Source of the DNA: Kiritimatiellia bacterium
Lineage (GTDB): Bacteria; Verrucomicrobiota; Kiritimatiellia; JAAZAB01
Assembly: GCA_028718125.1 (NCBI GenBank)
Contig: JAQUMN010000016.1
Span: 12,041 to 76,040 of the forward strand
Direction: 5' to 3'
Length of the DNA stretch: 64,000 nucleotides
Below are positions 7,879 through 51,277 of this stretch, piece after piece. The stretch's first letter is position 1. Every line of letters starts with the position of its first letter. The translations under genes were made by a program, and so were the position numbers. The notes below the pieces were generated by a model, which saw only the letters and a program-made list of their open reading frames with translations, was not told the origin of the DNA and did no database searches.

Positions 7879-7985
7879 TAATTTTTTCGCGATATTGGAG
7901 GGCGGAGCTCCGGCGACGCCGTTGGTTTCAGCATGAATGACGCAGCCGTGGTCCGTATGTGACGTGGACAGGAAAGGGCATTGAC

Positions 7986-19851: not shown

Positions 19852-19907
19852 GGATTAATTCAATCATGGTAGATGCGCTTGTGTCAAGCGCAACGCCGTT
19901 TCTTCGG

Positions 19908-28990: not shown

Positions 28991-31414
28991 ATGTCAAAAG
29001 AGAATAATACCAGAAAATTCCCGGGTAAAATATCGATATCATCAAAGAGTCTGAGCAACCAGCTGTCAATTGCATACGCTTTGATGACGATTTTACCAAT
29101 GATGTCTCTTTCTTATTTCCTGGTCATATATCTGATACCGAGCACTACGACCAGCGAGAACATTTTTCTAGTTTTTTTCTTCAGCCTGATATTGTCGCTG
29201 GCGGGTTATATAATCCTGATTAAAATCACAAAATCGATCCTGGAATTGAAAAATTATGTTGAGAATGTTGCCATGGGCAATCTAAAGCCGCCGGCGCTCC
29301 ATGATAACGCGGCAGAAGTTGATGATATCATAGAACTTGTATCGCGCATTCATCAGAAACTGCAGGATGTAGAGCAAGCACGAGCTCAAATGGAAAAGGC
29401 GGCAATTATTGAAGCAATGCCCGATCCGTTGTTTGTCATAGATCTTGATGGCATCATAATGCGTACAAATCCTGCCCAGGAAAAGGTGTTTGGCAGGAAA
29501 GCGGCAACAATGGTTGGTAAAAGGTTTGATGAACTCCTTCATGCCGTCAGGCCTCTAAATCCGGAGGAGTTTGCGCAGCTCCCGGGCAAGGTAATTGAAA
29601 CCGGAGAAGCCGGACCTGAGGAAATAGTGATTATTACCAGCGATGGCAGAGAAATACCCGCGAGCATAAAATATTCGTTATTGAAGAATGCCGAGGGAAT
29701 GCCCGTGTATATTGTTGCGGTGATGAGGGACATCACTGAGCTCAAGCGCGCGTCGGCGAAAGAAAAGGAGCTTGCCGCAGTAACCGCAGAAGCAATTGTA
29801 GAGAAGAAAAAGGCAGCCGAGCTGGAGAAAACATATAAAGAATTGAAAAGAGCAGACGAAGCATTGCGGGAGAACGAGAAGAACCAGCGGCGGCTCTTGG
29901 AAAGCATGATCAATGCATTCGCTATTTTCGAGTCGGTTTTCGATGATGCCGGCCAATTCATCAGTTGTCGGTTTGTCTTCATTAACGACGCTTATGAGCT
30001 CATCACCGGGGTAAAATACAAGGAGGTAAAAGGCAAGACCATCCATGAGGTATGGCCCAGGACAGAACCGGAATGGATCAATAGGTTAGGCGAGGTCGCT
30101 GTCACGGGCATTTTCCAGACGTTCGATATGTACCACGATCCGACACAAAAATCCTATCATTGCAATGTCTATCGTCCGTGGAATACAAAGGATCGCTTTT
30201 GCGTAATATTCGAAGACATCACCGATATCAAACGCGCGGCGGCGGAGAACGCAAAACTCGAAAACGAGCTTCAACAAGCCCATAAAATGGAATCAGTGGG
30301 CCGATTGGCCGGCGGCGTGGCGCATGACTTCAACAATATCCTGCAGATCATCCTGGGCAATATTGAACTGGCCCTGGCCCGAATGGAGCCGGACGACCCG
30401 CTCCGCGATGATCTTGAGGAGGTTCAAATAGCTGGCCGGCGCGCCGCTGATCTAACTCGTCAGTTGCTTGGCTTCGCCCGCAAGCAGACGATCGCTCCCC
30501 GGACGATGGACCTGAACGCAACCGTGGCAAGTATGCTCAAAATGTTGCGCCGCCTCATGGGCGAGGATATCGAGACGGTGTGGACGCCCGGTGCAGGCCT
30601 GTGGCCAATCAGGATGGACCCGGTCCAGATTGACCAGATTCTGGTCAACTTATGCGCCAACGCGCGCGATGTCATTACCGACACCGGCACGGTGCAAATC
30701 GCGACGGAAAACGTCCGTGTGGATGAACAGCATGCGGCGCGTCATGACGGGGTTGTTCCCGGCGACTATGTATTATTGAAGGTCAGCGACACCGGTTGCG
30801 GCATGGATGCGGAGACGCAAAGCAAAATCTTCGAACCGTTTTTTACGACCAAGCCGCCGGGGAAGGGCGCCGGGTTGGGGCTGGCCACCGTATACGGCAT
30901 CGTCAAGCAGAACCATGGATATATCGGCGTTTACAGCGAACCGGGCATGGGCACGACCTTACACATCTACCTGCCCCGGTACATGGGCAACGAAAAGGCG
31001 CCCGCCGTGGAAAGTCCGGCGAAGCCTCTCACCAGGGGAAGCGGGCTGATATTGCTGGTGGAGGACGATTTGTCCCTGCTGGGTATGTGCAGCCAGATAT
31101 TAACTAAATTAGGCTATGGCGTGCTGGCGGCCGGGACGCCGGATAAGGCCTGTTATCTGGCGGAAGAACATGCCGACGAGATTCGAGTGCTGGTGACCGA
31201 CGTCATCATGCCTGGCATGAACGGACGCGAACTGGCCACGCGGATAAAGACGCGCTATCCACATATCAATTGTCTGTTCATGTCCGGATTTACGGCGGAC
31301 ATCATCGCCCGTCAGGGCCTGCTGAAAAAAAGCGATCATTTCATCCAAAAGCCCTTTTCGATGGGGGATCTGGCCGCCAAAATAAATGAAACGTTGAACG
31401 ACAGTGCCGGCTGA
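28991..31414 (+). CDS. hybrid sensor histidine kinase / response regulator (membrane-anchored N-terminus, PAS domains, HisKA, HATPase_c, REC)
   Basis: RBS AAAGGAAG. H-box VAHDFNNILQ, G-box region, C-terminal REC (VTDVIMPGMNG). Confidence 0.85.
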   Translation: MSKENNTRKFPGKISISSKSLSNQLSIAYALMTILPMMSLSYFLVIYLIPSTTTSENIFLVFFFSLILSLAGYIILIKITKSILELKNYVENVAMGNLKPPALHDNAAEVDDIIELVSRIHQKLQDVEQARAQMEKAAIIEAMPDPLFVIDLDGIIMRTNPAQEKVFGRKAATMVGKRFDELLHAVRPLNPEEFAQLPGKVIETGEAGPEEIVIITSDGREIPASIKYSLLKNAEGMPVYIVAVMRDITELKRASAKEKELAAVTAEAIVEKKKAAELEKTYKELKRADEALRENEKNQRRLLESMINAFAIFESVFDDAGQFISCRFVFINDAYELITGVKYKEVKGKTIHEVWPRTEPEWINRLGEVAVTGIFQTFDMYHDPTQKSYHCNVYRPWNTKDRFCVIFEDITDIKRAAAENAKLENELQQAHKMESVGRLAGGVAHDFNNILQIILGNIELALARMEPDDPLRDDLEEVQIAGRRAADLTRQLLGFARKQTIAPRTMDLNATVASMLKMLRRLMGEDIETVWTPGAGLWPIRMDPVQIDQILVNLCANARDVITDTGTVQIATENVRVDEQHAARHDGVVPGDYVLLKVSDTGCGMDAETQSKIFEPFFTTKPPGKGAGLGLATVYGIVKQNHGYIGVYSEPGMGTTLHIYLPRYMGNEKAPAVESPAKPLTRGSGLILLVEDDLSLLGMCSQILTKLGYGVLAAGTPDKACYLAEEHADEIRVLVTDVIMPGMNGRELATRIKTRYPHINCLFMSGFTADIIARQGLLKKSDHFIQKPFSMGDLAAKINETLNDSAG
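30371..30990. repeat. near-identical (~97%) 620-bp segment, copy 1 (kinase core of hybrid HK)
   Basis: Nucleotide-level comparison with 53820..54439 shows about 19 differences in about 620 nt. Confidence 0.85.
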
Positions 31415-31561: not shown

Positions 31562-32722
31562 TTACCAGTTGGCGTTGAGAATGGGCATCACCGGCGTGAT
31601 GTTGTTGAGGGCCAGGTTGAGTATGCCGAACTGGATGCCGTCAAGCTCCTGGCAGAAATTAACTATGCCGAATTGAAAACCGGTAAGTTTGCCGGTCATG
31701 TTGACGCCTGACCATTGCACCCCGTCTGTATTCCTTGCATAGTTCACGCCCAGCAGCGGCAAAACAATCTGAGCGCCGCTGACGTCGCCCATGGCAAGAT
31801 TGACGCCGATCAGGCCCGCGACTTGCGCCCCGCTGACGTTGTTCAAGACAAAGTCTGCGCCGATGACGCTGAATTGACCTCCGGCCACCTGGTCGAGCGT
31901 GACATTCAAGCCGGCGCCCATTATCTGGGCATCGGCCGATCCCGCCACCCAGTTCGCGCCGGCGACCCCGAGCTGGGCCCCTTGTGCATTGCCGTTGACA
32001 TAGTTGGCGCCAAAGCCGCAGATTTGCTTGTCGGCGACATCCAGGGAAGCGTTTGCGCCCGCGGCCACAAATTGCCCGGCATTAATGGCGCCCAATGACA
32101 GGTTAAGCCCGGCGCCCAGAATCTGCAGGTCGGCATCACTACCGGCGAAATTCAAGCCGGCCGCGACTATCTGGCCGCCATTGGCTTTTTCGGTGGCCCA
32201 GTTGGCGCCTATTCCGGAAATCTGGTTGTCGGAATCAGCGCCGGTAAAATTGAGACCAATACCATTGAACTGGCCGCCATCGTGCTTGCCCATCGTCATA
32301 TTGATCCCGGCCAGGGTCAGTTGCCATCCGCCGGCCTGGGCGCCGACGTAGTTCAAGCCAACGGGCGCCAGCTGCACCCCCTGGCCATTTTCTAAAATTA
32401 CGTTGCCAAGACTGAGCTGAAATGACTGGGCCTGGCTTTCAACGATATTGACGATGCCTAATTGGGCGCCCTTCAGGTTGCCCATCAGGTCGTTAATCAC
32501 CCCGATGTCCATGCCGGTCAAGTCGTTGTTAAGTCCATAGATCAGGTTGATGCGCAACCCGTGGATGGAACATTCGGCGTCCTGAATCTGGATCGGGGTC
32601 ACAAGGGACAACTGGAAATTTGAGACGTTATTGTTCGGGGTGGACGCGGCATCCTGGGCGCCGCATGCCATTGCCCATGCCAACGCCAGTAAGCTGACTG
32701 CGGCTGCGACGATTCGGTTCAT
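31562..32722 (-). CDS. secreted tandem-repeat protein (about 18 imperfect 16-18-aa G/A/N/Q-rich repeats; beta-solenoid-like)
   Basis: Signal peptide MNRIVAAAVSLLALAWAMA. Repeating Q(L/F/I)xx(A/I)G(L/A)N(F/W/Y)xxGxxAxxG units. Confidence 0.5.
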   Translation of the reverse strand: MNRIVAAAVSLLALAWAMACGAQDAASTPNNNVSNFQLSLVTPIQIQDAECSIHGLRINLIYGLNNDLTGMDIGVINDLMGNLKGAQLGIVNIVESQAQSFQLSLGNVILENGQGVQLAPVGLNYVGAQAGGWQLTLAGINMTMGKHDGGQFNGIGLNFTGADSDNQISGIGANWATEKANGGQIVAAGLNFAGSDADLQILGAGLNLSLGAINAGQFVAAGANASLDVADKQICGFGANYVNGNAQGAQLGVAGANWVAGSADAQIMGAGLNVTLDQVAGGQFSVIGADFVLNNVSGAQVAGLIGVNLAMGDVSGAQIVLPLLGVNYARNTDGVQWSGVNMTGKLTGFQFGIVNFCQELDGIQFGILNLALNNITPVMPILNANW

Positions 32723-32939
32723 TGCATTCTCCCGGTTGATTGTTAACCGCATTATAACATTATTGAAACGCTCAGGCTTAGTTGATTTCTACAATTTCCG
32801 CAAAATAAATGCAACCATCATTTATACACAGCCGTGCTTTGATGCGCTCCCGCGGAGAATGCCGCTTGGCAAATGGAGTGGCTTTGCGATAATATATCCG
32901 TGTTCTGTTGAGCACACCATTTGAAATGAGGGGCAGTGC

Positions 32940-35249
32940 ATGAAAGCTGAAGCAACAACAGGGGTGCCGGAAATAGACCGGCTGGCTGGCGGAATAATTC
33001 CCGGCGACAATATTGTCTGGGAAGTTGATTCAGGCGTGCCGGTCGAACGCTTTGTGGTCAGTTTTCTCGCCGCCTGTGCGCACGAAAAATCTTTGGTCAT
33101 CTACGTCAGCTTCAATTCATCCCCGCAGACGATAACGAACAAATACGCATCCCTGTTGCCGAAAGGGGACTTTGTGTTGGTGGATTGTTTTTCTTCGGGT
33201 AAGGGAAACAACGACAGGGTATTTTTAGATTTTTTCAAGACAACCGAAAGCAACACGCCCAATGCGACCGTTCATCTGGAGAACCCCTCTGATCCCGGCA
33301 AGCTCGAACAATTGTTGATCAAACTTGGAACCCATGGTCAAAGGAGAGTGCGGTATATATTTGACAGTCTCACGGGCATGTTGGATCTGTGGGGTGATGA
33401 GGAAAGCGTTGTAAGATTGTTTGGGCACATTTGCCCGAGACTTTATGATCTTAACACGATTGCCTGCTGGATATTGGAGAAGGGGGCCCACTCCCCTTCG
33501 TTTTTGGCCAAGATCCGGCATATCACCCAGGTTGTATTCGATGTTGCGGTTTCGCGCGGTGTTCACACTCTGACGATCAGGAAAGCAAGCAATCGCCGCT
33601 GTGAGTATGTCGGCATTCCCCAGCAATTAATTCTGCAAGACGGGACAATCAGCGTGGCCGTCGAGACGCGGGAAGGGCGTGAATTGGGGCTGCTGACCAG
33701 AATGGGCGAGGTGTTGGGCAGCGCCCTTGATCCGAACTCGTTTTTCGAGCAAACCATGAAAGCTTTGGCCAACGAGCTTGGCATGGTTCGGGGAACCATC
33801 GTCCTTCTGGATAAAACCTGCAATAGATTAAAGATTGTTGCCGCCCATGGTCTTTCGGACGAGGAACAGTCCCGGGGACAATACGCAATTGGCGAGGGAA
33901 TAACAGGACAGGTTGTAAAAACCGGGGTTGCGGAAATAATTCCTGACATCGGCAAGAACGGGCGTTTCCTTAACCGGACGATTGCCCGTAAAAACGACAT
34001 TGCCGGCCCAATCGCTTTTATTTGTGTTCCCTTGAAAGTCGATGATGAAATCGTCGGCGCCTTGAGCGTAGATCGTCCTTTTGCCTTTGACAGTGCGCTT
34101 CAAAAAGACCTGAGAATGCTTTCGATCGTGGCCACCATCGTTTCCCAGGTCCTGAAAATCAACTCCCTGATCCGGGTGGAAAAAGAAGAAATTCTGGACC
34201 GCGATCAGGGTCGGCTTCGGGAACTTCGCAGCCGCTATCGCCTTGATAATGTGATCGGCGAGAGCGAAGCCATCCGGAAGGTTATGGCTATGGCGGCCAC
34301 GGCGGCAAAATCGCGAGCCTCTATCCTTGTTACCGGCGAAACCGGAACGGGCAAGGAACTGGTTGCCAAGGTGGTTCATTATAACAGCGCCCGAACCTCG
34401 GGTCCCTTGATCAAGGTCAATTGCGGAGCGCTTCCGGAGGACTTGCTGGAATCCGAACTCTTTGGGCATGTCAAGGGGGCGTTCACGGGAGCCTTGCATG
34501 ACAGGAAGGGACGCTTCGAAATGGCCGATGGCGGCACTCTCTTCCTGGATGAAATCGGAGAAATGAGTCCGCGGCTTCAGGTTAAACTGTTGCGCGTTCT
34601 TCAGGAGCGGGAATTCGAACCGGTCGGCAGTCCGAGGACGGTTGCGGTTAACGTGCGCGTGGTTACGGCAACCAGCAAGGATCTCAGGGAAGAAGTGCGC
34701 AAGGGTCGTTTTCGGGAGGATCTCTATTATCGCCTGAATGTGATTCCAATCCACCTGCCGCCCCTGCGTGAGCGCCGGGAGGATATTCCCTTGCTGATTA
34801 ACCATTTCCTGGAAATATTCAATCGGGAAAACCACAAGAATGTTCGGAAGTTGTCCCGGAAAGTGCTCGATATCCTTCTCGACTATCCGTGGCCCGGCAA
34901 TGTGCGCGAGTTGGAGAATTGCATGGAACGCGTGGTGGTGATGATCGAGGGGGATGCTTTATCCGCCGATTTATTGCCGTCGGAAATCCTCGATCATGAT
35001 CGCCAGGGATCTCTCAAGCGCAAGCAACCGTCTTCCGCGGATATACTGGACATCCGGGCGGCGGCCGAACGGCTCTGCGCCGGAACGAACGATCTGGCAT
35101 CCGCCAGGATCCTTCTGCTGCAAACGATGGAAGAGGTCGTGATTCGCCATGGTCTTCTTAAAAAAGCCAGCCAACGCGATCTTGCCAACAAGCTGGGCAT
35201 AAGCAGGATGACGCTACGCAAGAAATTGCAGTCATACGACCTGAAGTGA
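32940..35249 (+). CDS. sigma-54-dependent transcriptional regulator with N-terminal degenerate KaiC/RecA-like domain and GAF domain
   Basis: AAA+ sigma-54 activator core (GETGTGKE ... GAFTGA ... ESELFGH) and C-terminal HTH. The N-terminal ~260 aa has KaiC-like order ([15 protein letters not shown] ... FDSLTGML) but no GxxxxGKT. Confidence 0.8.
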
Positions 35250-35307: not shown

Positions 35308-35393
35308 TTGCCGGTGGCAATTCGATAGCCCCAGGTCTAATTATTAGACCACGCCTTGTCCTGGTTGCCGGCCAGGCCAAAGCAAGCCGGCAA
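35308..35393. promoter_or_regulatory. candidate enhancer (UAS) palindromes upstream of sigma-54 promoter
   Basis: TTGCCGGTGGCAA (35308-35320), GTCTAATTATTAGAC (35335-35349), TTGCCGGC-N13-GCCGGCAA (35365-35393). Confidence 0.4.
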
Positions 35394-35465: not shown

Positions 35466-35481
35466 TGGCACGAATCGTGCT
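35466..35481 (+). promoter_or_regulatory. sigma-54 (-24/-12) promoter of glnN
   Basis: TGGCACG-AATC-GTGCT with GG-N10-GC spacing. About 60 bp upstream of ATG 35542. Confidence 0.65.
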
Positions 35482-35541
35482 ATTTTATTTAGCCCGTCGG
35501 GGGGAGGCGGTCATTGCCGACATATAAAAGGAACGAATGCG

Positions 35542-37668
35542 ATGGATACCAATAGCTACGACGACTTGAAAAACATTGTCCCGGAACTGTATGGCGCGGA
35601 CGTTTTCAGCGATGCCGTCATGCGCGAGCGTCTGCCGAAGTCCGTATACAGGAAACTACGCGCCACTATCGAGGACGGGACGGCTATGGATGCTTCCATT
35701 GCCGACGTGATTGCCACAGCCATGAAAGATTGGGCGCTCGAGAAGGGCGCCACGCATTTCTCGCACTGGTTCCAGCCAATGACCGGGAGTACAGCCGAGA
35801 AACATGATGCGTTCATTGCGCCCAGGAATGACGGCACGACCATCATGGAATTCAGCGGGAAGGAATTAATCAAGGGCGAACCGGATGCTTCGAGTTTCCC
35901 ATCCGGCGGCTTGCGCGCTACTTTCGAAGCCCGCGGTTACACGGCCTGGGATTGTACAAGTCCTGTGTTTGTGAAGAAAGACGGGGAAAACACTGCGCTT
36001 TTCATCCCCTGCGCGTTCTGCTCCTACACGGGCGAGGCCTTGGACGCCAAGACGCCCCTGCTCAGGTCGATGGAGGTGCTGAACCGGCAGGCGGTGCGGG
36101 TGTTGCGGGCGCTGGGCAATACGACAAGCAAGCGTGTAACGGCCACGCTCGGCGCGGAACAGGAATACTTCCTGGTGGATCGTCGTTTTGTGGAACGCCG
36201 GCTCGATCTGATGCTGACCGGCAGAAGCCTGTTCGGTGCGCCAAGCCCGAAAGGCCAGGAGATGGAAGACCAGTATTTCGGAACGCTGCACGATCGCATA
36301 GGGTCGTTCATGGCTGATTTGAACAAGCAGCTCTGGAAACTCGGCGTTTCCGCAAAGACCCAGCACAATGAAGTCGCGCCGGGCCAGTATGAAATCGCTC
36401 CGATCTTCGGGACGGTAAACGTCGCCACGGACTGGAACCAGTTGACGATGGAGACGCTTGAGGATGTGGCGCTGCGGCATGGTTTTGTGTGCCTGCTGCA
36501 TGAGAAACCCTTTGCGGGCGTGAATGGCTCCGGCAAGCACAATAATTGGTCCATGGCAACCGATGACGGGCTGAACCTGCTGGAGCCGGGGTTGATGCCG
36601 CACGAGAACATGGTGTTCCTGGTTTGCCTCTGTGCGGTGATCCAGGCGGTGTCCAGGTACAGCAAACTTCTGAGGGCGACGGTAGCTACGCCGGGTAACG
36701 ATTACCGGCTCGGCGCCAATGAAGCGCCGCCCGCGATCGTCTCCGTCTTCCTTGGCGAGCAGCTTAGCGGCATCTTCGAACAACTTGCCGGGGGCGAGGC
36801 CAAAGGCAGGGGCCCGGACATTAAGGACATCTTCCTGGGCGCGTCGACGCTTCCCAAGCTGCCCAAGGATATGACCGATCGCAATCGGACGTCGCCTTTC
36901 GCGTTCACCGGTAACAAGTTCGAATTCCGGATGCTTGGCTCATCCCAGTCCCCGGCGATGGCAAATTCTGTGTTGAACACGATCGTAGCCGAGTCCTTGC
37001 GCGAGATGGCGGATGCGCTGGAGAAGTCGCGCGATGTTGCGGCCACGGCGCGGGAGTTGTGCGTGGCCATTGCCAAGGCCCACCGCAAGGTGATTTTCAA
37101 CGGCAACGGCTATTCTGCGGAGTGGCAAAGGGAGGCCGCCAAACGCGGCCTGCCGAACATAAAGAACTGCGTGGACAGCATCCTGGCGTTGCGCGAAAAG
37201 GAGAACGGCGACGTGCTCGCGAAACACGGCATCCTGAGCAAGGCTGAGCTGCATTCGCGCGTGGACATAATGTTGGATCATTATATCAAGACCCTCAATA
37301 TCGAGGCCCGAACCTGCCTGCACATGGCAAAGCGGCAGATCATCCCGACTGTGGTCGCTTTCAGCGGGCAGGTGGCTGGTGTCGTGCTGGCGCTCAAGGC
37401 GGCGGGCGCCAAGAATGGAGTTGCGGCCAGCCTTCTTAAAAAAGCGACCGCGCTGGCGGACAAACTGGACAAGGATGTGGCTGCGCTCGAACAGAAGCTG
37501 GAAAGTGCCGGCGGCGAGGAGAACCTGGAAAAGCAAGCCAAGGTGTTTCGCGACCAGGTTCTAAGCGGCATGAATGCCGTGCGCGAATCGGCGGATGCGC
37601 TCGAATCAATTGTCGATAGCTCGCTCTGGCCGTTGCCTTCATACGCTGAAATGCTGTTCTACCGCTGA
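35542..37668 (+). CDS. glnN: glutamine synthetase type III
   Basis: About 709 aa. GSIII-specific N-terminal region and catalytic core. Confidence 0.85.
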   Translation: MDTNSYDDLKNIVPELYGADVFSDAVMRERLPKSVYRKLRATIEDGTAMDASIADVIATAMKDWALEKGATHFSHWFQPMTGSTAEKHDAFIAPRNDGTTIMEFSGKELIKGEPDASSFPSGGLRATFEARGYTAWDCTSPVFVKKDGENTALFIPCAFCSYTGEALDAKTPLLRSMEVLNRQAVRVLRALGNTTSKRVTATLGAEQEYFLVDRRFVERRLDLMLTGRSLFGAPSPKGQEMEDQYFGTLHDRIGSFMADLNKQLWKLGVSAKTQHNEVAPGQYEIAPIFGTVNVATDWNQLTMETLEDVALRHGFVCLLHEKPFAGVNGSGKHNNWSMATDDGLNLLEPGLMPHENMVFLVCLCAVIQAVSRYSKLLRATVATPGNDYRLGANEAPPAIVSVFLGEQLSGIFEQLAGGEAKGRGPDIKDIFLGASTLPKLPKDMTDRNRTSPFAFTGNKFEFRMLGSSQSPAMANSVLNTIVAESLREMADALEKSRDVAATARELCVAIAKAHRKVIFNGNGYSAEWQREAAKRGLPNIKNCVDSILALREKENGDVLAKHGILSKAELHSRVDIMLDHYIKTLNIEARTCLHMAKRQIIPTVVAFSGQVAGVVLALKAAGAKNGVAASLLKKATALADKLDKDVAALEQKLESAGGEENLEKQAKVFRDQVLSGMNAVRESADALESIVDSSLWPLPSYAEMLFYR

Positions 37669-37684
37669 CATCGGTGAGGACTCT

Positions 37685-38410
37685 ATGATTGCCCTGGAGG
37701 ACAAAATATCAAAGTGGATTGCCCAGAACGTCCATGATGCGGGCGCCAAGGGAGCTGTGGTAGGGCTCAGCGGCGGCATAGACTCTGCGGTCACCGTTAC
37801 GCTTTGTGAAAAAGCGCTGGGGGCCAATGTGCTGGGCGTCAACATGCCGTGCGAGTCCGATCCTAATGAGAAAGAGGACGCCATGTTGATCACAACAAAA
37901 CTGGGGGTCATGACACTAACGGTGAGGCTTGACGAAACATATCAGGCGCTTATTGCCGGATTATCCGATGGTACGCGAATGGCAACTGCCAATTTAAAGG
38001 CCAGACTCCGGATGGCCATCTTGTACTTCCTGGCGAACACGCTCTCATATCTTGTCGTTGGCACAGGCAACAAGACGGAACTGATGGTGGGCTATTTTAC
38101 AAAATATGGAGATGGGGGCGTCGACATTCTTCCGCTGGGCGGTCTTTACAAGACTCAGGTTTGGGAACTTGCCCGTGCGCTCAAAATACCCGATAAAATC
38201 ATCAATACGACTCCTTCAGCCGGATTATGGCCCGGCCAGCGTGATGAGGAAGAATTAGGCATTTCATACGCCGAACTTGATTGTACCCTTCAGGCCGTTA
38301 ACGCTCGATGCCCCCGTAGTATTCCACAGGAAAATATCCGGCGGGTCTGGCAAATGGTCGAATCTTCGGCTCACAAACGTCGGCCGGCGCCCGTTTTCGA
38401 AATTTGCTGA
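37685..38410 (+). CDS. nadE: NH3-dependent NAD+ synthetase
   Basis: PP-loop SGGIDS; about 241 aa with no glutaminase domain. Confidence 0.85.
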   Translation: MIALEDKISKWIAQNVHDAGAKGAVVGLSGGIDSAVTVTLCEKALGANVLGVNMPCESDPNEKEDAMLITTKLGVMTLTVRLDETYQALIAGLSDGTRMATANLKARLRMAILYFLANTLSYLVVGTGNKTELMVGYFTKYGDGGVDILPLGGLYKTQVWELARALKIPDKIINTTPSAGLWPGQRDEEELGISYAELDCTLQAVNARCPRSIPQENIRRVWQMVESSAHKRRPAPVFEIC

Positions 38411-38424
38411 GAGGAAAGTGGCCA

Positions 38425-41400
38425 ATGGAACCGCGTCAGGGACTTTATGACCCGCGCTATGAACACGATGCCTGTGGCGTGGGTTTTGTCGCCCATATCG
38501 ATGGGAAGCCCTCCCATGAGATCGTGGCGCATGGCATCCGGGTCCTGGAGAACCTGCTGCATCGCGGCGCGACCGGCGGCGACAAGACCGGCGATGGCGC
38601 GGGCATCCTGATTCAAATTCCGGACACGTTTCTGCAGCGCGTCTGCGCCAAGCTGGGACTGAAATTACCGCCGGCGGGCGGGTATGGCGTCGGCATGTTC
38701 TTTCTACCTCCGGATCAAAAGCTGGCCGGACAATGCCGGGCGCTCTTTGAGCAGACTGTCGGCGAGGAAGGTTTGTCTTTCCTGGGATGGCGGGAGGTGC
38801 CCGTCAATCCGGCCGCCTTGGGGACCAAGGCCCGCCAGGAACAACCGTTGATTGCGCAATGTTTTATCGGCGGGGGGAGGGATGACCCCGTCATCCTGGA
38901 GTGCAAGCTGTATGTCCTTCGGAAGCTGGCGGAGCGCCGCATCGCGGCGCAGTTGCCGCCGGGAGCGGGCTGTTATATTCCCAGCCTTTCGTGCCGAACG
39001 ATCGTCTACAAGGGATTGTTGCTGGGCACCCAGCTGGGCGAGTTTTACGCCGACTTGCAGGCTGCGGATTTCAGCAGCGCCGTGGCGGTGATTCACCAGC
39101 GCTATAGCACGAACACGTTCCCCTCCTGGAAACTGGCGCAGCCCTTCCGCTACCTGGGGCATAACGGGGAAATCAACACGCTGCGGGGCAACATCCGGCA
39201 CATGCGTTCGCGGGAGGCGCTGCTATGCTCCAAGCGATTGAACGGCGCCATCGCGAAACTCCTGCCCATTATCGATGCCGAAGGCAGCGATTCGGGCTGC
39301 CTGGACAATGCCTTGGAGCTGCTGGTGGCCGGAGGGCGTGATCTGCCGCATGCCATGATGATGCTGATTCCCCAGGCCTGGGGGCCCAAATACCCCATGG
39401 GGCCGGATCTGAGAGGGTTCTTCGAGTATAACTCGGGATTGATGGAGCCCTGGGACGGCCCGGCGGCCGTGGCGTTTACGGATGGCGCCGTGGCGGGCGC
39501 GCTTCTGGACCGCAACGGGCTCCGGCCTTGCCGCTACACCATTACCAAGGATGGCTTGATGGTGCTGGCCTCGGAAACAGGGGTCCTGGATTTTGCGCCC
39601 GGCGAAATCGCCGAGAAAGGCGCCCTGCGCCCCGGCGAAATGATCCTCGTCGATTTTGATAAGCGGCGCGTATTAAAGGACCGGGAGATCAAGAACGACT
39701 ATGCACGCCGGCTGCCGTATCGACGCTGGGTGGAAGAGCACAAGATCATGCTCCATGGCCTGTTTAACGATGTGGCGCCAGTGGTGCCGGACACGGCGCG
39801 GCTGTTCCTGCGCCAGAAAATATTCGGCTATACCCGCGAGGATTTGGAGCTGGTGATCAATGTCATGGCCTCCAAGGCGCGCGAGCCGGTCGGGTCCATG
39901 GGTTGCGACACACCCCTTGCGGTCCTGTCGGAAAAGCCGCAATTGCTCTATGCGTATTTCAAGCAGTTGTTTGCCCAGGTGACCAACCCGCCGATCGATC
40001 CGATCCGCGAAGAGCTGGTCATGTCGTTGATGACCTTCATGGGCAATCCCGCCAATATCCTTACGGAAAAGCCGCAGCATAGCCGCTTGATCAAACTCCG
40101 CCACCCTATTCTTTCCAACGAGGACCTGGGCAGGATTAAAACGCTGAATCTGAAGGATTTTACGATTGCCACCCTGCCGATCGGATTTCCTGCCGACGCT
40201 TCGCCGGAATCCCTGGCGCTCGCCCTGGATCAACTAGGCCGGGAAACGGAAGCGGCGATCCACGCCGGGAGAACGGTGATCATTTTGAGCGATCGCGATT
40301 TGCCGGCGGCGATGATTCCCATTCCGGCCCTGCTGGCGGTATCGGCGGTCAACCAGGTGGTGGTCCGCCTGGGCAAGCGCACCGGCGCGGCCATCATCCT
40401 GGAAAGCGGGGAGCCCCGCGAAGTGCATCATTTTGCTTTGCTGCTGGGCTACGGCGCGACGGCGATCAATCCCTACCTCGCATTCGATATCGTGGCGGAT
40501 ATGGCTTGCAAAGGGCAACTGGAAGGCCGCCTTGGCGTCACCCAAGCCCTGGAAAATTACATCGAGGCCGTTTGCAAGGGATTGCTCAAGGTCATGTCCA
40601 AGATGGGCATCTCGACGTTGCGCAGCTACCGGAGCGCCCAGGTTTTTGAAGCGATCGGGCTAAGCACCGCCTTGATTGAACGCTGCTTCCCGGGTACCGC
40701 CTCCCGGATCCAGGGCATCGGGCTGGCTGAAATCGCCGCCGAAGCGCGCGCGCGCCACGCGGCGGCCTACGACGGCGCGCCGGACGCGCCGCGCGTGCTT
40801 CCCGGCGGGGGCCGTTATCGCTATCGCAAGGATGGCGAGCGCCATCTCTGGACGCCGGAAAGCATAACCAAGCTCCAGCAGGCGGCGCGCAACAACGACG
40901 AGCGCCTTTACCGGGAGTATGCCAGGCTGATCAACGATCATACCCGCCAGGCCGGCACCTTGCGGGGCCTGTTCCAATTCAAAGAATGTCAGGCCATTCT
41001 GATCGAGGATGTCGAGAGCGCCGCCGGGATTATGAAACGGTTCGTGACCTCGGCCATGTCGTTCGGCTCCATCAGCCGGGAGGCGCACGAGACACTCGCG
41101 ACGGCCATGAACCGCATTGGTGCCATGAGCAACAGCGGGGAAGGCGGCGAGGATCCCGAGCGCTACGCCCCCTTGCCGAATGGCGACAACCGCGGCAGCG
41201 CGGTCAAGCAGGTTGCCAGCGGCCGGTTTGGCGTGACGACCGAATACCTCGTGCACGCCCGGGAATTGCAGATCAAGATGGCGCAAGGCGCCAAGCCCGG
41301 CGAAGGTGGACAATTGCCCGGGTTCAAGGTCGGCCCGGAGATTGCGCGCGTGCGCCATACCACGCCGGGGGTGACGCTGATTTCACCGCCGCCGCATCAT

Positions 41401-42939
41401 GACATATATTCCATCGAGGACATCAAGCAGTTGATCTTCGATTTGAAGAACGTCAATCCCGCGGCCAAAGTCTCCGTCAAACTGGTCTCCGAGGTCGGCG
41501 TGGGCACGATTGCCGCCGGCGTGGTGAAAGGCGGCGTGGACAAGGTCCTGATCAGCGGACACGACGGCGGCACCGGGGCTTCGCCGCTTTCCTCGATCCA
41601 CTTCACGGGCGCTCCGTGGGAGCTCGGCCTGGCGGAAACTCAGCAGACGCTCATGCTGAACAACCTGCGCCGTCGCGTGCGGCTGCAGGTGGATGGCCAG
41701 TTGAAAACCGGCCGGGATGTGATCGTCGCGGCCTTGCTGGGGGCCGAGGAGTTCGGCTTTGCCACGGCGCCGCTGGTCGTCTGCGGCTGCGTGATGATGC
41801 GCAAATGCAACGAGAATATCTGCCCGGCCGGGATTGCGACGCAGAATCCCGATCTGCGCAAACGCTTTGCGGGGAAGCCCGAACACGTCATTCATTTCTT
41901 CACGATGCTTGCCGACGAGGTTAGGGAATACATGGCGCGCCTGGGCTTTCGCCGGCTGGACGACCTGATCGGCCGCAGCGATCTGCTGGAAATAAATCCG
42001 GCGATTGAGTTCTGGAAGACCCGCCACCTGGACTTTGCGGCGATCTTCCGGCCGGCGGCCGGGACTGGCCCGCGGCGCAGTGTCGAAGCGCAGCCATGCG
42101 AACTGGAGCAAGTCATGGATGTCGATTTGATCAAGGTTGCCAAGCCTGCCCTGGAGAAACGCGCGGCCGTCGCGATGGATCGGGTCATCCAGAATGTCAA
42201 CCGCGCGACGGGCGCGATGCTTTCCGGTGAAATTGTGCGCCGCTACGGCGGGGCCGGCTTGCCGGATGATACCGTGCTCTGCCGCTTCAAGGGCTCGGCC
42301 GGCCAGAGTTTCGGCGCCTTTGGCGCAAAGGGACTGACCCTGCGACTGGAGGGCGATGCCAACGATTACCTGGGGAAAGGCCTTTCCGGCGCCCGGCTGA
42401 TTGTCGTGCCGCCGGCGGAGGCCCGCTTCGATCCCTCCGCCAATACGATTTGTGGCAATGTGCTCCTGTACGGCGCCACCGCCGGTGAAGCCTACATTTA
42501 TGGCCGTGCGGGGGAACGGTTTGCGATCCGGAACAGCGGAGCGTATGCCGTGGTCGAGGGGGTGGGCGATCACGCCTGCGAATACATGACGGGCGGGCGG
42601 GTTGTCGTCCTGGGCAAAACGGGCGTGAACTTTGCCGCGGGCATGAGCGGAGGGATTGCCTACGTATACGATCCGGAAGGGAGCTTTGACGATCGGTGCA
42701 ATCTGGAAATGGTCGATTTGAACAGGGTAACGGACGCCGCCGATATCCAGGAATTGCGCACGATGCTTCAAGCCCATCTGCACCACACCGGGAGCCGGCA
42801 AGCCGCCCATATCCTGGAGCACTGGCCGGAATCCCTGCCCTTGTTTGTGCAGGTGTTCCCCATGGAGTATCGCCGGGCGCTGGGACGGATGAGCAAAGAG
42901 GACGAAGCCACCAAACGGGAGGGCTTGGCCGATGGGTAA
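38425..42939 (+). CDS. gltB: glutamate synthase large subunit
   Basis: N-terminal Ntn Cys (MEPRQGLYDPRYEHDACGVGF), FMN/Fe-S central domain, GXXG C-terminal domain; about 1504 aa. Confidence 0.95.
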   Translation: MEPRQGLYDPRYEHDACGVGFVAHIDGKPSHEIVAHGIRVLENLLHRGATGGDKTGDGAGILIQIPDTFLQRVCAKLGLKLPPAGGYGVGMFFLPPDQKLAGQCRALFEQTVGEEGLSFLGWREVPVNPAALGTKARQEQPLIAQCFIGGGRDDPVILECKLYVLRKLAERRIAAQLPPGAGCYIPSLSCRTIVYKGLLLGTQLGEFYADLQAADFSSAVAVIHQRYSTNTFPSWKLAQPFRYLGHNGEINTLRGNIRHMRSREALLCSKRLNGAIAKLLPIIDAEGSDSGCLDNALELLVAGGRDLPHAMMMLIPQAWGPKYPMGPDLRGFFEYNSGLMEPWDGPAAVAFTDGAVAGALLDRNGLRPCRYTITKDGLMVLASETGVLDFAPGEIAEKGALRPGEMILVDFDKRRVLKDREIKNDYARRLPYRRWVEEHKIMLHGLFNDVAPVVPDTARLFLRQKIFGYTREDLELVINVMASKAREPVGSMGCDTPLAVLSEKPQLLYAYFKQLFAQVTNPPIDPIREELVMSLMTFMGNPANILTEKPQHSRLIKLRHPILSNEDLGRIKTLNLKDFTIATLPIGFPADASPESLALALDQLGRETEAAIHAGRTVIILSDRDLPAAMIPIPALLAVSAVNQVVVRLGKRTGAAIILESGEPREVHHFALLLGYGATAINPYLAFDIVADMACKGQLEGRLGVTQALENYIEAVCKGLLKVMSKMGISTLRSYRSAQVFEAIGLSTALIERCFPGTASRIQGIGLAEIAAEARARHAAAYDGAPDAPRVLPGGGRYRYRKDGERHLWTPESITKLQQAARNNDERLYREYARLINDHTRQAGTLRGLFQFKECQAILIEDVESAAGIMKRFVTSAMSFGSISREAHETLATAMNRIGAMSNSGEGGEDPERYAPLPNGDNRGSAVKQVASGRFGVTTEYLVHARELQIKMAQGAKPGEGGQLPGFKVGPEIARVRHTTPGVTLISPPPHHDIYSIEDIKQLIFDLKNVNPAAKVSVKLVSEVGVGTIAAGVVKGGVDKVLISGHDGGTGASPLSSIHFTGAPWELGLAETQQTLMLNNLRRRVRLQVDGQLKTGRDVIVAALLGAEEFGFATAPLVVCGCVMMRKCNENICPAGIATQNPDLRKRFAGKPEHVIHFFTMLADEVREYMARLGFRRLDDLIGRSDLLEINPAIEFWKTRHLDFAAIFRPAAGTGPRRSVEAQPCELEQVMDVDLIKVAKPALEKRAAVAMDRVIQNVNRATGAMLSGEIVRRYGGAGLPDDTVLCRFKGSAGQSFGAFGAKGLTLRLEGDANDYLGKGLSGARLIVVPPAEARFDPSANTICGNVLLYGATAGEAYIYGRAGERFAIRNSGAYAVVEGVGDHACEYMTGGRVVVLGKTGVNFAAGMSGGIAYVYDPEGSFDDRCNLEMVDLNRVTDAADIQELRTMLQAHLHHTGSRQAAHILEHWPESLPLFVQVFPMEYRRALGRMSKEDEATKREGLADG

Positions 42940-44422
42940 GCCCGGAGGGTTTTTGGAACACGGCCGCCAGGGTCCGGCCTATCGTCCCGCGGAGGAACGG
43001 ACCCGGGATTTTAAGGCCGTTGAAATTCCGCTCGCGCCGGAAGCGCTGCGTTTGCAGCTGGCGCGTTGCCAGGAGTGCGGGACGCCTTTCTGTCACGGGG
43101 TCGGTTGTCCGTTGGCGAATGTCATCCCCGAGCTGAATAACCTTGCCTGGCAAGAACGCTGGGAAGAGGCGCTCGCGCTCCTGCTGGCCAATAATCCATT
43201 CCCGGAATTCACCGGGCGGCTCTGCCCGGCCCTGTGCGAAGCCTCCTGTGTGCTCGGCATCCATGACGAGGCGGTAACGATCCGGCAAATTGAACTGGCG
43301 GTCATCGAAAGGGGCTTTGACCAGGGGTATCTGCGGCCGGCGCCGCCGCCGGCGCGTTTTGTGGAGCGGATCGCGGTGGTCGGAAGCGGGCCGGCCGGCT
43401 TGGCCGTGGCCGATGCGCTCAACAAGGCCGGCTACCCAGTCGTGGTTTATGAACACGCCGCCAAGATCGGTGGGATCTTGCGCTATGGTATCCCGGACTT
43501 CAAACTGGAAAAAGGAGTGTTGGACCGCAGAATTCACCTCATGGAGGACGAAGGCGTCCGTTTCGAGACCGGGGTCGCCGTTGGGACGGATTTGTCTTTC
43601 CGTTATTTGCAAAGCCGTTACCAAGCCATTTGCCTCTGCGGCGGCGCGCGCGAACCCAGGGATTTGCAGGTGAGCGGCCGCGACCTGGCGGGTATTCATT
43701 TTGCCATGGACTACCTGATGGCCCAGAATTTGAAACACTCGGGCGGCCATGTGAACGCGGCGGAAGATATCGATGCGCGCGGCAAGAAGGTCGTGATTAT
43801 CGGCGGCGGCGACACCGGCGCCGACTGCCTGGGGACGGCCATCCGGCAAGGCGCCCAGAGCGTCATGCAGGTGGAGATTTTGCCGGAGCCGCCGGGCGCC
43901 AGGCCCGCGCACACCCCGTGGCCGATGTGGCCGGCCATGCGCCGCGATTCGACCAGTCATAAAGAAGGGGGCATCCGGCGCTGGGGCGTCAGTGCCACAC
44001 GTTTCAGGGGGCTGAAGGATGCCGTCAGCCGGATAGACTGCGTGGAAGTGCGTTCGGTGCGCCATGCCGATGGACGCCTGGAATTCGTTCCACTTTCGGG
44101 CACGGAATTCGAGCTGGAGGCCGACTTGGTCCTGCTGGCGCTTGGGTTTGTTTCCTCGGATCGGCAGGGCTTTATGAAAGAGCTCGCGCTTGAACGCAGC
44201 GCCCAAGGGACCATTAAAGCCGATGACGATCATCAAACCAGCGTGCCGGGCGTGTTTGTGGCCGGCGACATGCGTAACGGGCCGGCGCTGGTTGCACGGG
44301 CAATTGCGGATGGACTGTCAGCCGCGCGCGGAATCAGGCGCTGGATAAAAAAAGCTGTCGGGGGAAAAGCAAAAGTGGAAGGTGGGAGCGAGAAAAAAGT
44401 GGAAAGTGTTTGGGGTGAGTAA
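42932..44422 (+). CDS. gltD: glutamate synthase small subunit (NADPH)
   Basis: Fe-S Cys motifs followed by FAD/NAD Rossmann VVGSGPAG. 8-nt overlap with gltB. Confidence 0.9.
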   Translation: MGKPGGFLEHGRQGPAYRPAEERTRDFKAVEIPLAPEALRLQLARCQECGTPFCHGVGCPLANVIPELNNLAWQERWEEALALLLANNPFPEFTGRLCPALCEASCVLGIHDEAVTIRQIELAVIERGFDQGYLRPAPPPARFVERIAVVGSGPAGLAVADALNKAGYPVVVYEHAAKIGGILRYGIPDFKLEKGVLDRRIHLMEDEGVRFETGVAVGTDLSFRYLQSRYQAICLCGGAREPRDLQVSGRDLAGIHFAMDYLMAQNLKHSGGHVNAAEDIDARGKKVVIIGGGDTGADCLGTAIRQGAQSVMQVEILPEPPGARPAHTPWPMWPAMRRDSTSHKEGGIRRWGVSATRFRGLKDAVSRIDCVEVRSVRHADGRLEFVPLSGTEFELEADLVLLALGFVSSDRQGFMKELALERSAQGTIKADDDHQTSVPGVFVAGDMRNGPALVARAIADGLSAARGIRRWIKKAVGGKAKVEGGSEKKVESVWGE

Positions 44423-44775
44423 GAGGGGGAAGTAAGGGAGTATGAAACGCTGATAGACAAAGGTTTATGAAGGGAAATGGCAAGGATGAGGCGCCCCCTA
44501 GGGGGCGGGTGCCCGTGGAGCGAGCAAAAGTGGAAAACGGCCTATACTGGCCGCATGAAAAAACAAATAGGTTCACGGTTGGGCTTGCCGCACGTGCAGG
44601 ACGTGCTCAAGCAAGTATTGCGCACCTTGATTCCGCTTGGTAAGCTCAAAGCCCGTTTGGTAGAGATGCCTCGATATCCCCTCTTTTTTTGGTGTTAGGC
44701 CATGGGGGTGGTGTTGTTTTAGTGTGTAGGTGCTTCCGGCGGCACAAAATAAATTTCGCGGAGAGGAGTTGAGCC

Positions 44776-46233
44776 ATGGCATTAAATGATCCGGAGAGAT
44801 ATCCGCGGGAGGCGTGCGGATTATTTGGCGTCTACGGCGTGCCCGATGCGGCGCCCCTGATTTACCAGGGTTTGTTTTCGCTCCAGCATCGCGGGCAGGA
44901 AGGCGCTGGGATTGTAACCAGCGACGGCCAGAAGGTGCGCTCAATCAAGGGGATTGGGCTGGTCAACGACGTGTTTACGGCCAGGTCGTGGGATGAGTTG
45001 CCGGGACACATTGGCATCGGGCATGTGCGCTATTCCACGACCGGCTCCACCCGAATCCAGAATGTCCAGCCGTTGGTCGTGGAATGCAGTGACGGCATAT
45101 GGGCCATCGCCCATAACGGCAACCTGACCAATGCCGGGAGCCTGCGCCGGATGTACCGGGACGCCGGCGCGATTTTCCAGACCAGCACGGACAGCGAAGT
45201 CCTGGTCCATCTGCTGGCCGACCCCATGTATCGCTTGCGCCCGCTACGGGTGGCGCGCGCCTTGAACGAACTCAAGGGCGCTTTTACCTTTCTGCTGATG
45301 ACCCGGGATTGTGTGATGGCGGCGCGGGATCCGCTGGGGTTCAAGCCGCTCTCGATCGGGCGGCTGGGCAAGGGGTATGTCTTTGCCAGCGAAACCTGCG
45401 CGCTGGTCCAGACAGGAGCGGAATATATCCGGGATGTCCAACCGGGGGAGTTGGTGGTCGTGGATAAAAATGGCATGTCATGTTCGCCGTTCGCCTCCGC
45501 GCCGGGTCAGGGCCAGGCGCAATGTATTTTCGAGCATGTTTATTTTGCCCGGCCGGATAGCCAGGTGTTCGGCGAGAGCGTCCATGGCATCCGCTGTCAG
45601 CTGGGATTACGGCTGGCCCGGGAACAGCCGACCGACGCGGATATTGTCATAGCGGTGCCCGACAGCGGCAATGCGGCGGCGCTGGGATACTCGCGGGGAA
45701 GTGGTATTCCGCTGGATTACGGGTTTATCCGCAACCATTACGTGGGCCGGACGTTCATCATGCCGGAGGCGCACCAGCGGTCCGACAGCGCGGACATGAA
45801 ACTGGCGGTGGTCCGGGACGTGGTGAACGGCAAGCGCGTGGTGGTGGTGGATGATTCCATCATCCGCGGGACCACGGCGCGTCGGCGGGTCGCCGCATTG
45901 AAGCAAGCGGGGGCCCGTGAAATCCACCTGCGAATTGCGTGTCCGCCGGTCATGCACCCCTGTTTTTTCGGCATTGATTTTCCCACGCAAGCGGAACTGA
46001 TCGCCGGGCAGCGGTCGGTTGACGAGATTTGCAGATTTCTTAACGCGGATTCGCTGGGCTACTTGAGCATGGAGGGGCTGCTGGCGCCTTTCCGGTTTCC
46101 ACGCGCCTATTGCACCGCCTGTTTTTCCGGGACGTATCCGGTTGATGTCAGCGCGGTACAGGGCAAGACGGCATTGGAAGACGGCGCTCCGCTGCAGCAG
46201 GGTGAAGGCCTGTTGCCTAAATTCAGTTTCTGA
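44776..46233 (+). CDS. purF: amidophosphoribosyltransferase
   Basis: Propeptide then CGLFGV (Ntn Cys), PRTase motif [24 protein letters not shown]. Confidence 0.95.
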
Positions 46234-46253
46234 GTAGATACGAGGGAGGTTCA

Positions 46254-47954: not shown

Positions 47955-47957
47955 AAT
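47889..47957. repeat. ~70-nt palindromic repeat element, copy 2 (overlaps the 3' end of pyrG)
   Basis: About 85% identical to 14098..14168. Encodes the pyrG tail ...[17 protein letters not shown]. Confidence 0.6.
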
Positions 47958-47998
47958 TCAGCATCGGAAATCGAAAATCGAAATTTGAAAATTGAGTC

Positions 47999-50900: not shown

Positions 50901-51277
50901 TGTGCGCCCTGGGGTTTACCGTGTATGCCACGGAAGGAACCAGCACGGTCCTGCGGGATCATGGCATTCCCAGCCAGGCGATCTTTCGTATCTCCAAAGG
51001 CCGGCCCCACGTGCTGGATATGATCAGGGAAAAACAGGTCGGTTGGATTGTGAGCACGCCGTCCAGCGGAGAAACTCCCCGCGTGGACGAAGTGAAAATG
51101 CGGGCTGAAGCCGTGATCCGGGGGATTCCCATCACGACCACGCTCAACGGCCTGGAATCGGCGGTGAAAGGCCTGGAAACGTTTCGGGAGACCCGGCGGA
51201 TGGAAGTGTGCAGTCTTCAGGAATACCATCGGCATGCTCCGCGTCTGAAATTGACCGCGGTGGAGAAAATCGCATGA
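47999..51277 (+). CDS. carB: carbamoyl-phosphate synthase large subunit
   Basis: Duplicated ATP-grasp halves and an MGS-like C-terminal domain; about 1092 aa. Confidence 0.95.

Follow-up and report, generated by a model that had tools for sequence, protein, structure and literature searches.

In a 64,000-nucleotide (nt) stretch of DNA from a Kiritimatiellia bacterium (contig JAQUMN010000016.1, positions 12,041 to 76,040 of the forward strand; hereafter the window, in whose coordinates positions are given), the plus strand encodes at 32940-35249 a 769-amino acid (aa) regulator composed of a KaiC-like module, a helix, a GAF domain, an AAA+ domain and a helix-turn-helix (HTH) domain. We consider it fairly probable that this protein is a NifA-like enhancer-binding protein (EBP) that activates ammonia assimilation through glnN-nadE-gltBD, and that its KaiC-like module is a ligand-gated input for nitrogen status which it shares with other regulators. 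The module is probably a new kind of nitrogen-status input domain, because it heads varied regulators that nearly all lie beside nitrogen-assimilation genes and because it is the sole regulatory domain in the Acidobacterial and XRE-only forms.

The KaiC-like module and the domains that follow it

Searched alone in Pfam, NCBIfam and the PDB, the N-terminal domain of the regulator (residues 1-243, 32940-33668) gave either sub-threshold matches or none; the Pfam model PF06745 reached E=0.028 and 14.2 bits on the protein of the window (gathering cutoff 26.6), and phmmer found no match in the PDB. Single-sequence searches were therefore insufficient, and a family profile and a structure model were used. 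The profile of 111 sequences matched solved KaiC chains with E=3e-7 and the archaeal KaiC-like protein PH0284 with E=2e-6, and 11 of 40 family members individually matched PF06745 at E<=0.01, the best with 1.3e-9. An AlphaFold2 model of the module, built on the family alignment, had a predicted local distance difference test score (pLDDT) of 91.3 and a predicted template-modelling score (pTM) of 0.88. Foldseek ranked PH0284, KaiC (CI and full length), Sso2452, PH0186 and FlaH at the top for this model (E=1.7e-13 to 1e-11, probability 1.0), with template-modelling scores of up to 0.79, the value for PH0284. The model comprises one RecA-like domain and no CI-CII tandem. By profile and predicted fold, the N-terminal ~245 aa are thus a KaiC-family RecA-like domain. 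An earlier note on this DNA, made from the letters alone, had read the region as KaiC/RadA-like, and its reading stands, since the family profile, the individual members and the fold search (lowest E values of the order of 1e-13) all point to KaiC and the predicted structure is of KaiC type. The strings quoted in it were also present in the protein (a 15-letter string at residues 8-22, WEVDSGVP at 27-34 and SLTGML at 143-148).

More than 500 homologues of the module were found. Further matches were weak: 12 of 40 members matched the haloarchaeal family DUF7090 (PF23365) below the gathering score and over residues ~96-199 only, and several XRE-type members carried weak precomputed matches to PF05625 (PAXNEB). 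A few members bear COG0467 names given by JGI, which shows that automated pipelines had already caught the KaiC similarity. To judge from scans of family members and of distant relatives, Pfam has no model dedicated to the module.

Alignment of hidden Markov models to KaiC placed the former P-loop at residues 27-36 (33018-33047), opposite KaiC GTSGTGKT. The longer KaiC stretch LVSGTSGTGKT aligned with 11 residues in which the Walker A Lys is replaced by V35 and the Thr by E36, and this agrees with the earlier proposal that WEVDSGVP had taken the place of the P-loop. The catalytic Glu pair has been replaced as well, a change to which the note had not referred: KaiC VTFEESPQD aligned with VSFNSSPQT, where EE has become N59-S60. 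In the Walker B motif (KaiC VVIDSITA, here YIFDSLTGM) the Asp is kept as D142. The pattern GxxxxGK[ST] was found in 0/111 and 0/40 family members (0/151 rows) and in 0/20 distant relatives. Across the family, the position of the Walker A Lys is occupied by Val, Tyr, Ser and others and never by Lys, and that of the Thr by Asp or Glu; at the site of the catalytic Glu, 107 of 111 members have Asn and none has Glu, and the Walker B position is Asp in 106 members and Glu in the other five. The P-loop position now bears two or three acidic residues (E28, D30, E/D36). With the Walker A Lys/Thr and the catalytic Glu pair gone, the module is, as far as its sequence can tell, a pseudo-ATPase, as had been supposed. 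A reading of the module as part of a KaiC clock was rejected: it is a single domain, the P-loop is absent, and KaiA and KaiB families were not seen among the Pfam-scanned open reading frames (ORFs) of the window or among annotated conserved neighbours.

The earlier description of the domain as degenerate is misleading. In 107 orthologues below 75% identity, the identity of the module is 58%, and near-invariant columns (95% identity or more) make up 34% of it, a share given also for 121 orthologues; the linker at residues 692-734 has 29% identity and 0% of such columns. The helix that joins the module to the GAF domain (residues 244-262, 33669-33725; helical at 244-261 in the model) is the most conserved segment, with a mean identity of 81%. 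Newly arisen invariant residues are K88, in an SGKG loop, and H184, and R167, H194, K215 and R219 are nearly invariant. When the alignment was compared with the secondary structure of the model, the invariant polar residues (E28/D30/S31/G32, N59/S61, K88, D142/S143/T145 and E180/H184) were found just after strands 1-5, the place of the classical nucleotide crevice. Because the replacement motifs are family-wide and the module is under strong purifying selection, the ATP site appears to be remodelled and retained, and the domain not to be decaying.

The C-terminal two thirds of the protein have the composition claimed in the earlier note, GAF plus AAA+ plus HTH, and Pfam recognised all three, the HTH marginally below its cutoff. 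The NifA-like GAF domain (residues 263-405, 33726-34154) matched PF01590 with E=3.4e-13 over residues 264-404. The sigma-54 interaction AAA+ domain with its lid (residues 438-691, 34251-35012) matched PF00158 with E=1.6e-72 and PF25601, the spans being 438-605 for Sigma54_activat and 610-691 for AAA_lid_14. Its catalytic motifs are all intact (Walker A GETGTGKE at 466, Walker B LFLDE at 534, REDLYYRL at 592 and LRERREDI at 609), and the sigma-54-contacting GAFTGA loop lies at residue 513. The Fis-type HTH DNA-binding domain (residues 735-769, 35142-35246) was assigned by PF02954 (HTH_8, 735-766). Walker A, Walker B, R-finger, sensor II, GAFTGA and a C-terminal HTH, the features by which bacterial EBPs are recognised, are all present, and by these features the regulator is a bacterial EBP. 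The best NCBIfam model was nifA (TIGR01817), aligned over residues 252-682 with 496.1 bits against a cutoff of 528.85. Membership of this NifA equivalog was rejected on account of the score and of the neighbourhood, since no nif gene was recognised either in the ORFs scanned in the window or in annotated conserved neighbour clusters. The 769-aa protein is 100% identical to an NCBI entry derived from a metagenome-assembled genome (MAG) and named 'sigma 54-interacting transcriptional regulator [Kiritimatiellae bacterium]'.

Distribution of the module and association with nitrogen genes

The full-length architecture was found in more than 120 clusters at 90% identity (62-91% identity, ~99% coverage), which derive from Kiritimatiellae, Verrucomicrobiota and Sedimentisphaerales and are usually named automatically 'Nif-specific regulatory protein'. 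A scan of GTDB with one genome per species yielded at least 456 loci that encode the module; neighbour statistics were drawn from the 80 best-scoring loci of each scan, in which ORF calling was crude. The 80 best genome loci were all from MAGs, and the full EBP architecture was dominant. Loci of the PVC group and of Brocadiaceae encoded module-GAF-AAA+-HTH proteins, and 19 Acidobacteriota loci among the 80 best encoded module-AAA+-HTH proteins without GAF, so that no second regulatory domain is needed beside the module. The form with GAF is common in uncultured Kiritimatiellae, Verrucomicrobiota, Planctomycetota and Brocadiaceae. XRE (~320 aa) and XRE-cupin (~420 aa) regulators of Nitrospirota, Thermodesulfobacteriota and Spirochaetota likewise begin with the module. 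One clade has a split form (locus L082, 8001-9811): a 253-aa ORF encodes the module by itself, and its stop and the start of a 350-aa Sigma54_activat ORF share 4 nt, an arrangement which suggests that the module can act in trans. Apparent stand-alone forms of 253 aa were rejected as such, being either split genes with a separate sigma-54 AAA+ ORF behind them or contig fragments.

An exhaustive search of 1.84 billion representatives gave 410 clusters at 50% identity (E<=1e-3). Among distant relatives (P0310, P0339, P0343, P0346, P0320, P0330, P0327, P0344, P0374 and P0361), the module was observed on PAS-GGDEF-EAL proteins, histidine kinases and PilJ-HAMP-PAS, PAS-GAF-PAS and PPDK_N proteins. 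P0361 has it internally and all the others at the N-terminus, and both the P-loop and the SGKG loop are missing from every one. The motifs GDNxVW, YxFDNLS, CPxLYELETVAYF and RDTTQ are common to them, and over the module region they match no Pfam model. The occurrence of these relatives on kinases and on enzymes of cyclic di-GMP (c-di-GMP) metabolism suggests a broader superfamily of input domains without a Pfam model.

These results bear on two points of the earlier note. The fusion to an EBP is present here, and the module is not EBP-specific, as it also heads XRE and XRE-cupin regulators and, distantly, kinases, GGDEF-EAL proteins and PPDK_N proteins. The architecture, which the note had called unfamiliar among EBPs, was not described in the literature found; it is not rare, as the number of full-length clusters demonstrates. 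In the literature searched, which excludes most subscription journals, no paper described the module, the architecture or the regulator family. A 2025 cross-phylum study of sigma-54 regulons, which reported that NtrBC is poorly conserved in Planctomycetota, makes no mention of the module (PMC12316311). The gap may be explained by the uncultured status of all sampled members. The regulator is an EBP that has, like its sister regulators, what is probably a new input module, and its architecture is undescribed rather than unusual.

Directly downstream of the regulator gene lies glnN, encoding a type III glutamine synthetase (35542-37668, plus strand; GSIII_N E=3.7e-78, Gln-synt_C and Gln-synt_C-ter), probably the first gene of the target operon. 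Its likely true start is 35542, preceded by an AAAGGA ribosome-binding site; the start of the listed ORF, at 35452, overlaps the promoter. On the same strand follow nadE (37682-38410, NAD_synthase), gltB (38404-42939, ORF call) and gltD (42932-44422, Pyr_redox_2/Fer4_20). Because the four genes are tightly packed or overlapping, they are probably co-transcribed. They form part of a longer co-directional run (35542-52431, plus strand) of glnN, nadE, gltB, gltD, a PurF-type amidotransferase gene (44776-46233), pyrG, carB and carA, all the enzymes of which use ammonia or glutamine, an unusually complete 'amide-nitrogen' cluster. To judge from gene spacing, only glnN, nadE, gltB and gltD look like one operon behind the sigma-54 promoter described below.

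The association with nitrogen genes recurred in other genomes. Of the EBP-type loci, 56 had at least 2.5 kb of downstream sequence, and 44 of these carried same-strand genes for split or FMN-type glutamate synthase (GOGAT), GlnN, Amt, PII or PurF-like proteins within 5 kb downstream. In 57 of 62 XRE-cupin loci the next same-strand gene encoded a PF01645 Glu_synthase protein, and genes for NrpR, Fer4-Glu_synthase, GXGXG/GltD-like proteins and PII recurred nearby. PII genes were present in six XRE-type loci, and in L001 and L005 amt-glnK lies between the EBP gene and glnN. The XRE-only form (P0022) precedes the ammonium transporter gene amt, and the split form lies upstream of Glu_synthase and GXGXG (GOGAT) genes. 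Since the link to these genes persists across output domains, it is the module, and not the output domain, that tracks nitrogen assimilation.

Two further observations were made in these neighbourhoods. Bacterial homologues (PF01995 plus winged HTH) of NrpR, a nitrogen repressor of archaea that responds to 2-oxoglutarate, were encoded in 22 of 80 XRE-type metagenome loci (for example L108:6957-7958; also L081:11335-12387). They lie one or two genes from the XRE-cupin module regulators and beside split glutamate synthase genes of archaeal type. In loci of Sedimentisphaerales, Pirellulales and Acidobacteriota (L029:3394-3705 and L032:11680-12030, with equivalents in L009, L010, L018, L027, L037, L043, L044, L047, L054, L063 and L075), the sigma-54 promoter and the split GOGAT genes are separated by a small Cys-rich ORF of ~100-130 aa, which falls into two sequence clusters and has no Pfam match. 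It might encode an Fe-S or zinc protein that has escaped annotation, or a subunit with a regulatory role in the GOGAT operon.

Predicted promoter and enhancer, and the proposed input function

The best sigma-54 match in the window is the candidate -24/-12 promoter TGGCACGAATCGTGCT at 35466-35481 on the plus strand, with one mismatch to TGGCAC-N5-TTGCW and ~60 nt before the likely start of glnN; the earlier statement that the regulator sits directly upstream of a sigma-54-driven glnN is thus in agreement with the sequence. The element is conserved in the closest loci (L001, L005 and L006), where it precedes amt-glnK-glnN or glnN. A sigma-54 site with at most one mismatch was present within 700 nt after the EBP stop and on the same strand in 33 of 70 loci, and the density of such sites there was 23 times that in the rest of the 70 loci. 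At 35466-35492 the promoter element TGGCACGAATCGTGCTA is partly self-complementary and is followed by TTTTATTT, so that the region resembles an intrinsic terminator and may also end transcription of the regulator gene.

A candidate enhancer, or upstream activating sequence, lies at 35315-35350, 115-151 nt upstream of the -24 element. It consists of tandem dyads, TGGCAATTCGATAGCCCCA at 35315-35333 and the perfect palindrome GGTCTAATTATTAGACC at 35334-35350, with the half-sites GGTCTAAT/ATTAGACC. The relaxed form TGG-N12/13-CCA was spotted by eye and then tested for enrichment: 19 of 34 loci had such dyads, with AT-rich centres and often in tandem, at a distance of 115-151 nt from the -24 element. 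Their density upstream of promoters was 4.0 per kb and that in the background 0.78 per kb, an enrichment of about 5-fold, and they were positionally clustered. When exact inverted repeats were enumerated over the promoter-upstream regions, no motif was common to all clades. Binding of the regulator at 35315-35350 is suggested by the classical geometry of EBP enhancers. The TGG-N12/13-CCA dyads were absent from the Brocadiaceae loci. These loci (L061, L062, L066, L070, L071 and L073) carry instead repeated TGCAC-N5-GTGCA-like motifs, similar to NtrC sites, between the EBP stop and the sigma-54 promoter of an FMN-type Glu_synthase gene, which suggests that DNA specificity differs between members of the regulator family. 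The regulator gene itself has a candidate sigma-70-type promoter at 32866-32893 (plus strand; TTGGCA-16-GATAAT with a TG extension, 10 of 12 consensus matches), ~47 nt before the ATG; it is weak, and the number of such sites was not significantly above that in shuffled sequences.

From architecture, conservation and gene association we infer the following mechanism. The regulator would bind the tandem dyads upstream of glnN (35315-35350). Its AAA+ ring, which is intact, would remodel sigma-54 RNA polymerase at 35466-35481 and so drive the glnN-nadE-gltB-gltD operon. The KaiC-type module, having lost ATP hydrolysis, would have been kept and remodelled as the signal input. In KaiC-type rings the nucleotide crevice is situated where two subunits meet; the remodelled crevice of the module would bind a metabolite that reports nitrogen status. 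Our first guess for this ligand is 2-oxoglutarate, which might be bound by way of a metal on D142, E28 and D30, and our second is glutamine. Binding would shift the oligomeric state of the module, and the shift, relayed through helix 244-262 to the GAF and AAA+ domains, would gate assembly of the active hexamer.

Several observations weigh against this proposal. Every sampled family member derives from a MAG or a metagenome. The HTH_8 match (E=1.8e-4, 21.6 bits) is marginally under the Pfam cutoff of 22, no rpoN was seen in the ORFs of the window that were scanned, and the promoter element also scores as a short hairpin plus T-run. Under crude ORF calling, 12 of the 56 EBP loci had no recognised nitrogen gene. 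The acidic residues at the place of the P-loop disfavour phosphate binding and point to no particular ligand, and the clustering of the invariant residues into a single pocket was deduced from secondary structure only. K215 aligned with the trans-acting Lys224 of KaiC CI, with R219 nearby; this alignment, with an hhalign probability of 10.9%, is a lead only.

The GAF domain, moreover, could be the true metabolite sensor and the module only a scaffold. The GAF domain of Azotobacter vinelandii NifA has been reported to bind 2-oxoglutarate. The module would then be a ligand-free oligomerisation platform, and nitrogen would be read by the GAF or cupin domain or through the expression of the regulator itself. 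KaiC-family domains form hexameric rings, which would match the hexamers of the AAA+ domain; the catalytic residues of the module are lost, a NifA-like GAF is available as sensor in the regulator of the window, and the XRE forms often have a cupin domain. However, the 19 Acidobacterial EBPs and the XRE-only P0022 have no second sensor and are nitrogen-linked nonetheless, the invariant polar residues are, in the model, concentrated in the old nucleotide crevice and not spread over the surface, and a pure scaffold would have no need of invariant K88, D142 and H184. We hold a scaffold role to be unlikely.

Somewhat less probable is that the module serves as a docking platform for a partner that carries the signal, PII (GlnB/GlnK) or glutamine synthetase (GS), and that the remodelled crevice is a protein interface. 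KaiC-family proteins are known as partner-binding hubs, for example for KaiB/KaiA and in ArlH-ArlI, and the idea is analogous to the control exerted by PII on NifA, by PII on NtcA/PipX and by GS on TnrA/GlnR. PII genes do lie beside the regulator in several loci (L001, L005 and the six XRE-type loci), but these are a minority, and PII is absent from the scanned ORFs of the window. Nor was any single small partner gene found to be conserved across the module architectures, and a KaiA- or KaiB-like gene was not seen. The hybrid PAS kinase gene upstream of the regulator (28991-31414) was considered as a cognate partner and rejected, as it is not conserved beside the regulator in other loci and had a weak match in L020 only; for the same reason it is probably unrelated to the regulator.

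We think it improbable that non-canonical residues, with K88 as a relocated lysine, still allow the module to bind a nucleotide, perhaps with slow turnover, and to act as an energy-charge sensor or a KaiC-like timer. The retained Walker B Asp (Glu in five members), the Gly-rich loop with its invariant Lys after strand 3 and the tentative match of K215 to the KaiC trans-acting Lys would fit such a role. Set against these are the acidic character of the P-loop position, where neither Lys nor Ser/Thr is ever found, the complete loss of Glu from the catalytic position and the lack of the SGKG loop in the distant relatives. That the N-terminal region is a functionless remnant, a decaying ATPase on an ordinary NifA-type activator, is hardly credible: the canonical motifs are gone and Pfam fails to recognise the domain in the protein of the window, but the conservation data contradict decay, as replacement motifs are maintained across phyla and unrelated output domains, near-invariant columns are confined to the module in the comparison with the linker, the model is confident and the module is found in hundreds of clusters.

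If the module is indeed a metabolite sensor, a new fold would join the few direct nitrogen sensors PII, NtcA, NrpR, NifA-GAF and GS, and the module would be a clear example of an ATPase ring that has become a ligand-gated switch for assembly on top of an AAA+ motor. For nitrogen sensing in uncultured anaerobic lineages (PVC superphylum, Acidobacteriota, anammox bacteria and Nitrospirota), the module family is a concrete and widespread candidate. Its conserved motifs would allow regulators and regulons to be annotated in metagenomes, where the names that the proteins now bear, 'Nif-specific regulatory protein' or 'helix-turn-helix domain-containing protein', are wrong. Going further, we put forward tentatively, as a possibility with rather less in its favour, that the P-loop-less module (GDNxVWE...SFNxSPQT...DCFxSGKG...FDSLTGM) represents an unrecognised class of cytoplasmic sensors. 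The subfamily with the SGKG loop might bind 2-oxoglutarate or glutamine in the remodelled nucleotide pocket between subunits. It might be the master input for nitrogen assimilation in several uncultured lineages in which canonical NtrBC seems limited, namely Planctomycetota, Kiritimatiellae/Verrucomicrobiota, Acidobacteriota, Brocadiaceae (anammox) and Nitrospirota/Thermodesulfobacteriota. The wider superfamily might act generically as a switch whose oligomerisation is under ligand control and which passes signals to histidine kinases, c-di-GMP enzymes and PPDK-type kinases as well.

Comparison with known systems and other features of the window

Among known regulators, NifA resembles the protein in the aligned GAF and AAA+ domains, the GAFTGA loop, the C-terminal Fis-type HTH and a nitrogen-related regulon. 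It differs in that the regulator described here has an extra KaiC-like module of 243 aa and a helix before the GAF domain and is associated with glnN, GOGAT and amt genes and not with recognised nif neighbours. The binding site of NifA is TGT-N10-ACA, whereas the candidate enhancer here is TGG-N12/13-CCA. NtrC (NR-I) has its AAA+ and HTH domains in common with the regulator, which scored 345 bits against TIGR01818 over residues 432-764, and probably has the same task, that is, sigma-54-dependent activation of GS, GOGAT and amt genes from upstream enhancers. Unlike NtrC, however, the regulator has no receiver domain, and no adjacent NtrB-type kinase is conserved across the loci; its input would come through the KaiC-like module, together with the GAF domain, and not through phosphorylation.

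KaiC and its single-domain kin (PH0284, PH0186, Sso2452 and ArlH/FlaH) have the fold and the strand order in common with the module, as well as the motifs TGI-x-x-D-x-L-GG, xSFxxSPQ and Walker B hhhDS and the strand that precedes the P-loop; a Lys-bearing hairpin may correspond too. The module differs from them in lacking the Walker A Lys/Thr and the Glu pair and in being fused to transcription-factor or signalling outputs. The Elp4/5/6 proteins (PAXNEB, PF05625) are RecA-fold pseudo-ATPases which lack ATPase motifs, are nevertheless conserved and function as a ring or binding platform. The likeness is at the level of the superfamily only, Elp456 being a eukaryotic/archaeal tRNA-modification subcomplex unlinked to transcription-factor input or nitrogen. 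The haloarchaeal GvpD (COG0467, 'KaiC/GvpD/RAD55') is a further case of a KaiC-like domain in transcriptional regulation, that of gas-vesicle genes; it has a functional P-loop and acts as a separate protein on the activator GvpE. NrpR, NtcA, GlnR/TnrA and AmtR resemble the proposed system in a direct reading of nitrogen status beside GS/GOGAT genes, but their sensor folds are unrelated and none is RecA-like.

Some features of the window outside the regulator and its presumed operon were also recorded. Two hybrid histidine kinase genes of the type PAS-HisKA-HATPase-REC, the one at 28991-31414 mentioned above and another at 52877-54850 (plus strand), flank the nitrogen cluster. Divergent from the regulator gene, on the minus strand at 31562-32752, lies a gene for a 396-aa protein with a hydrophobic N-terminus and Gly/Gln/Asn-rich repeats of ~20 aa (GxQxxxxGxN...), for which no Pfam match was found. 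Five consecutive large ORFs (775, 527, 482, 562 and 543 aa) without Pfam match at 1e-6 occupy 2469-11275 on the plus strand, inside a cluster for polysaccharide/lipopolysaccharide biosynthesis, with B12-radical-SAM genes at 12755-14050 and 19842-21392.

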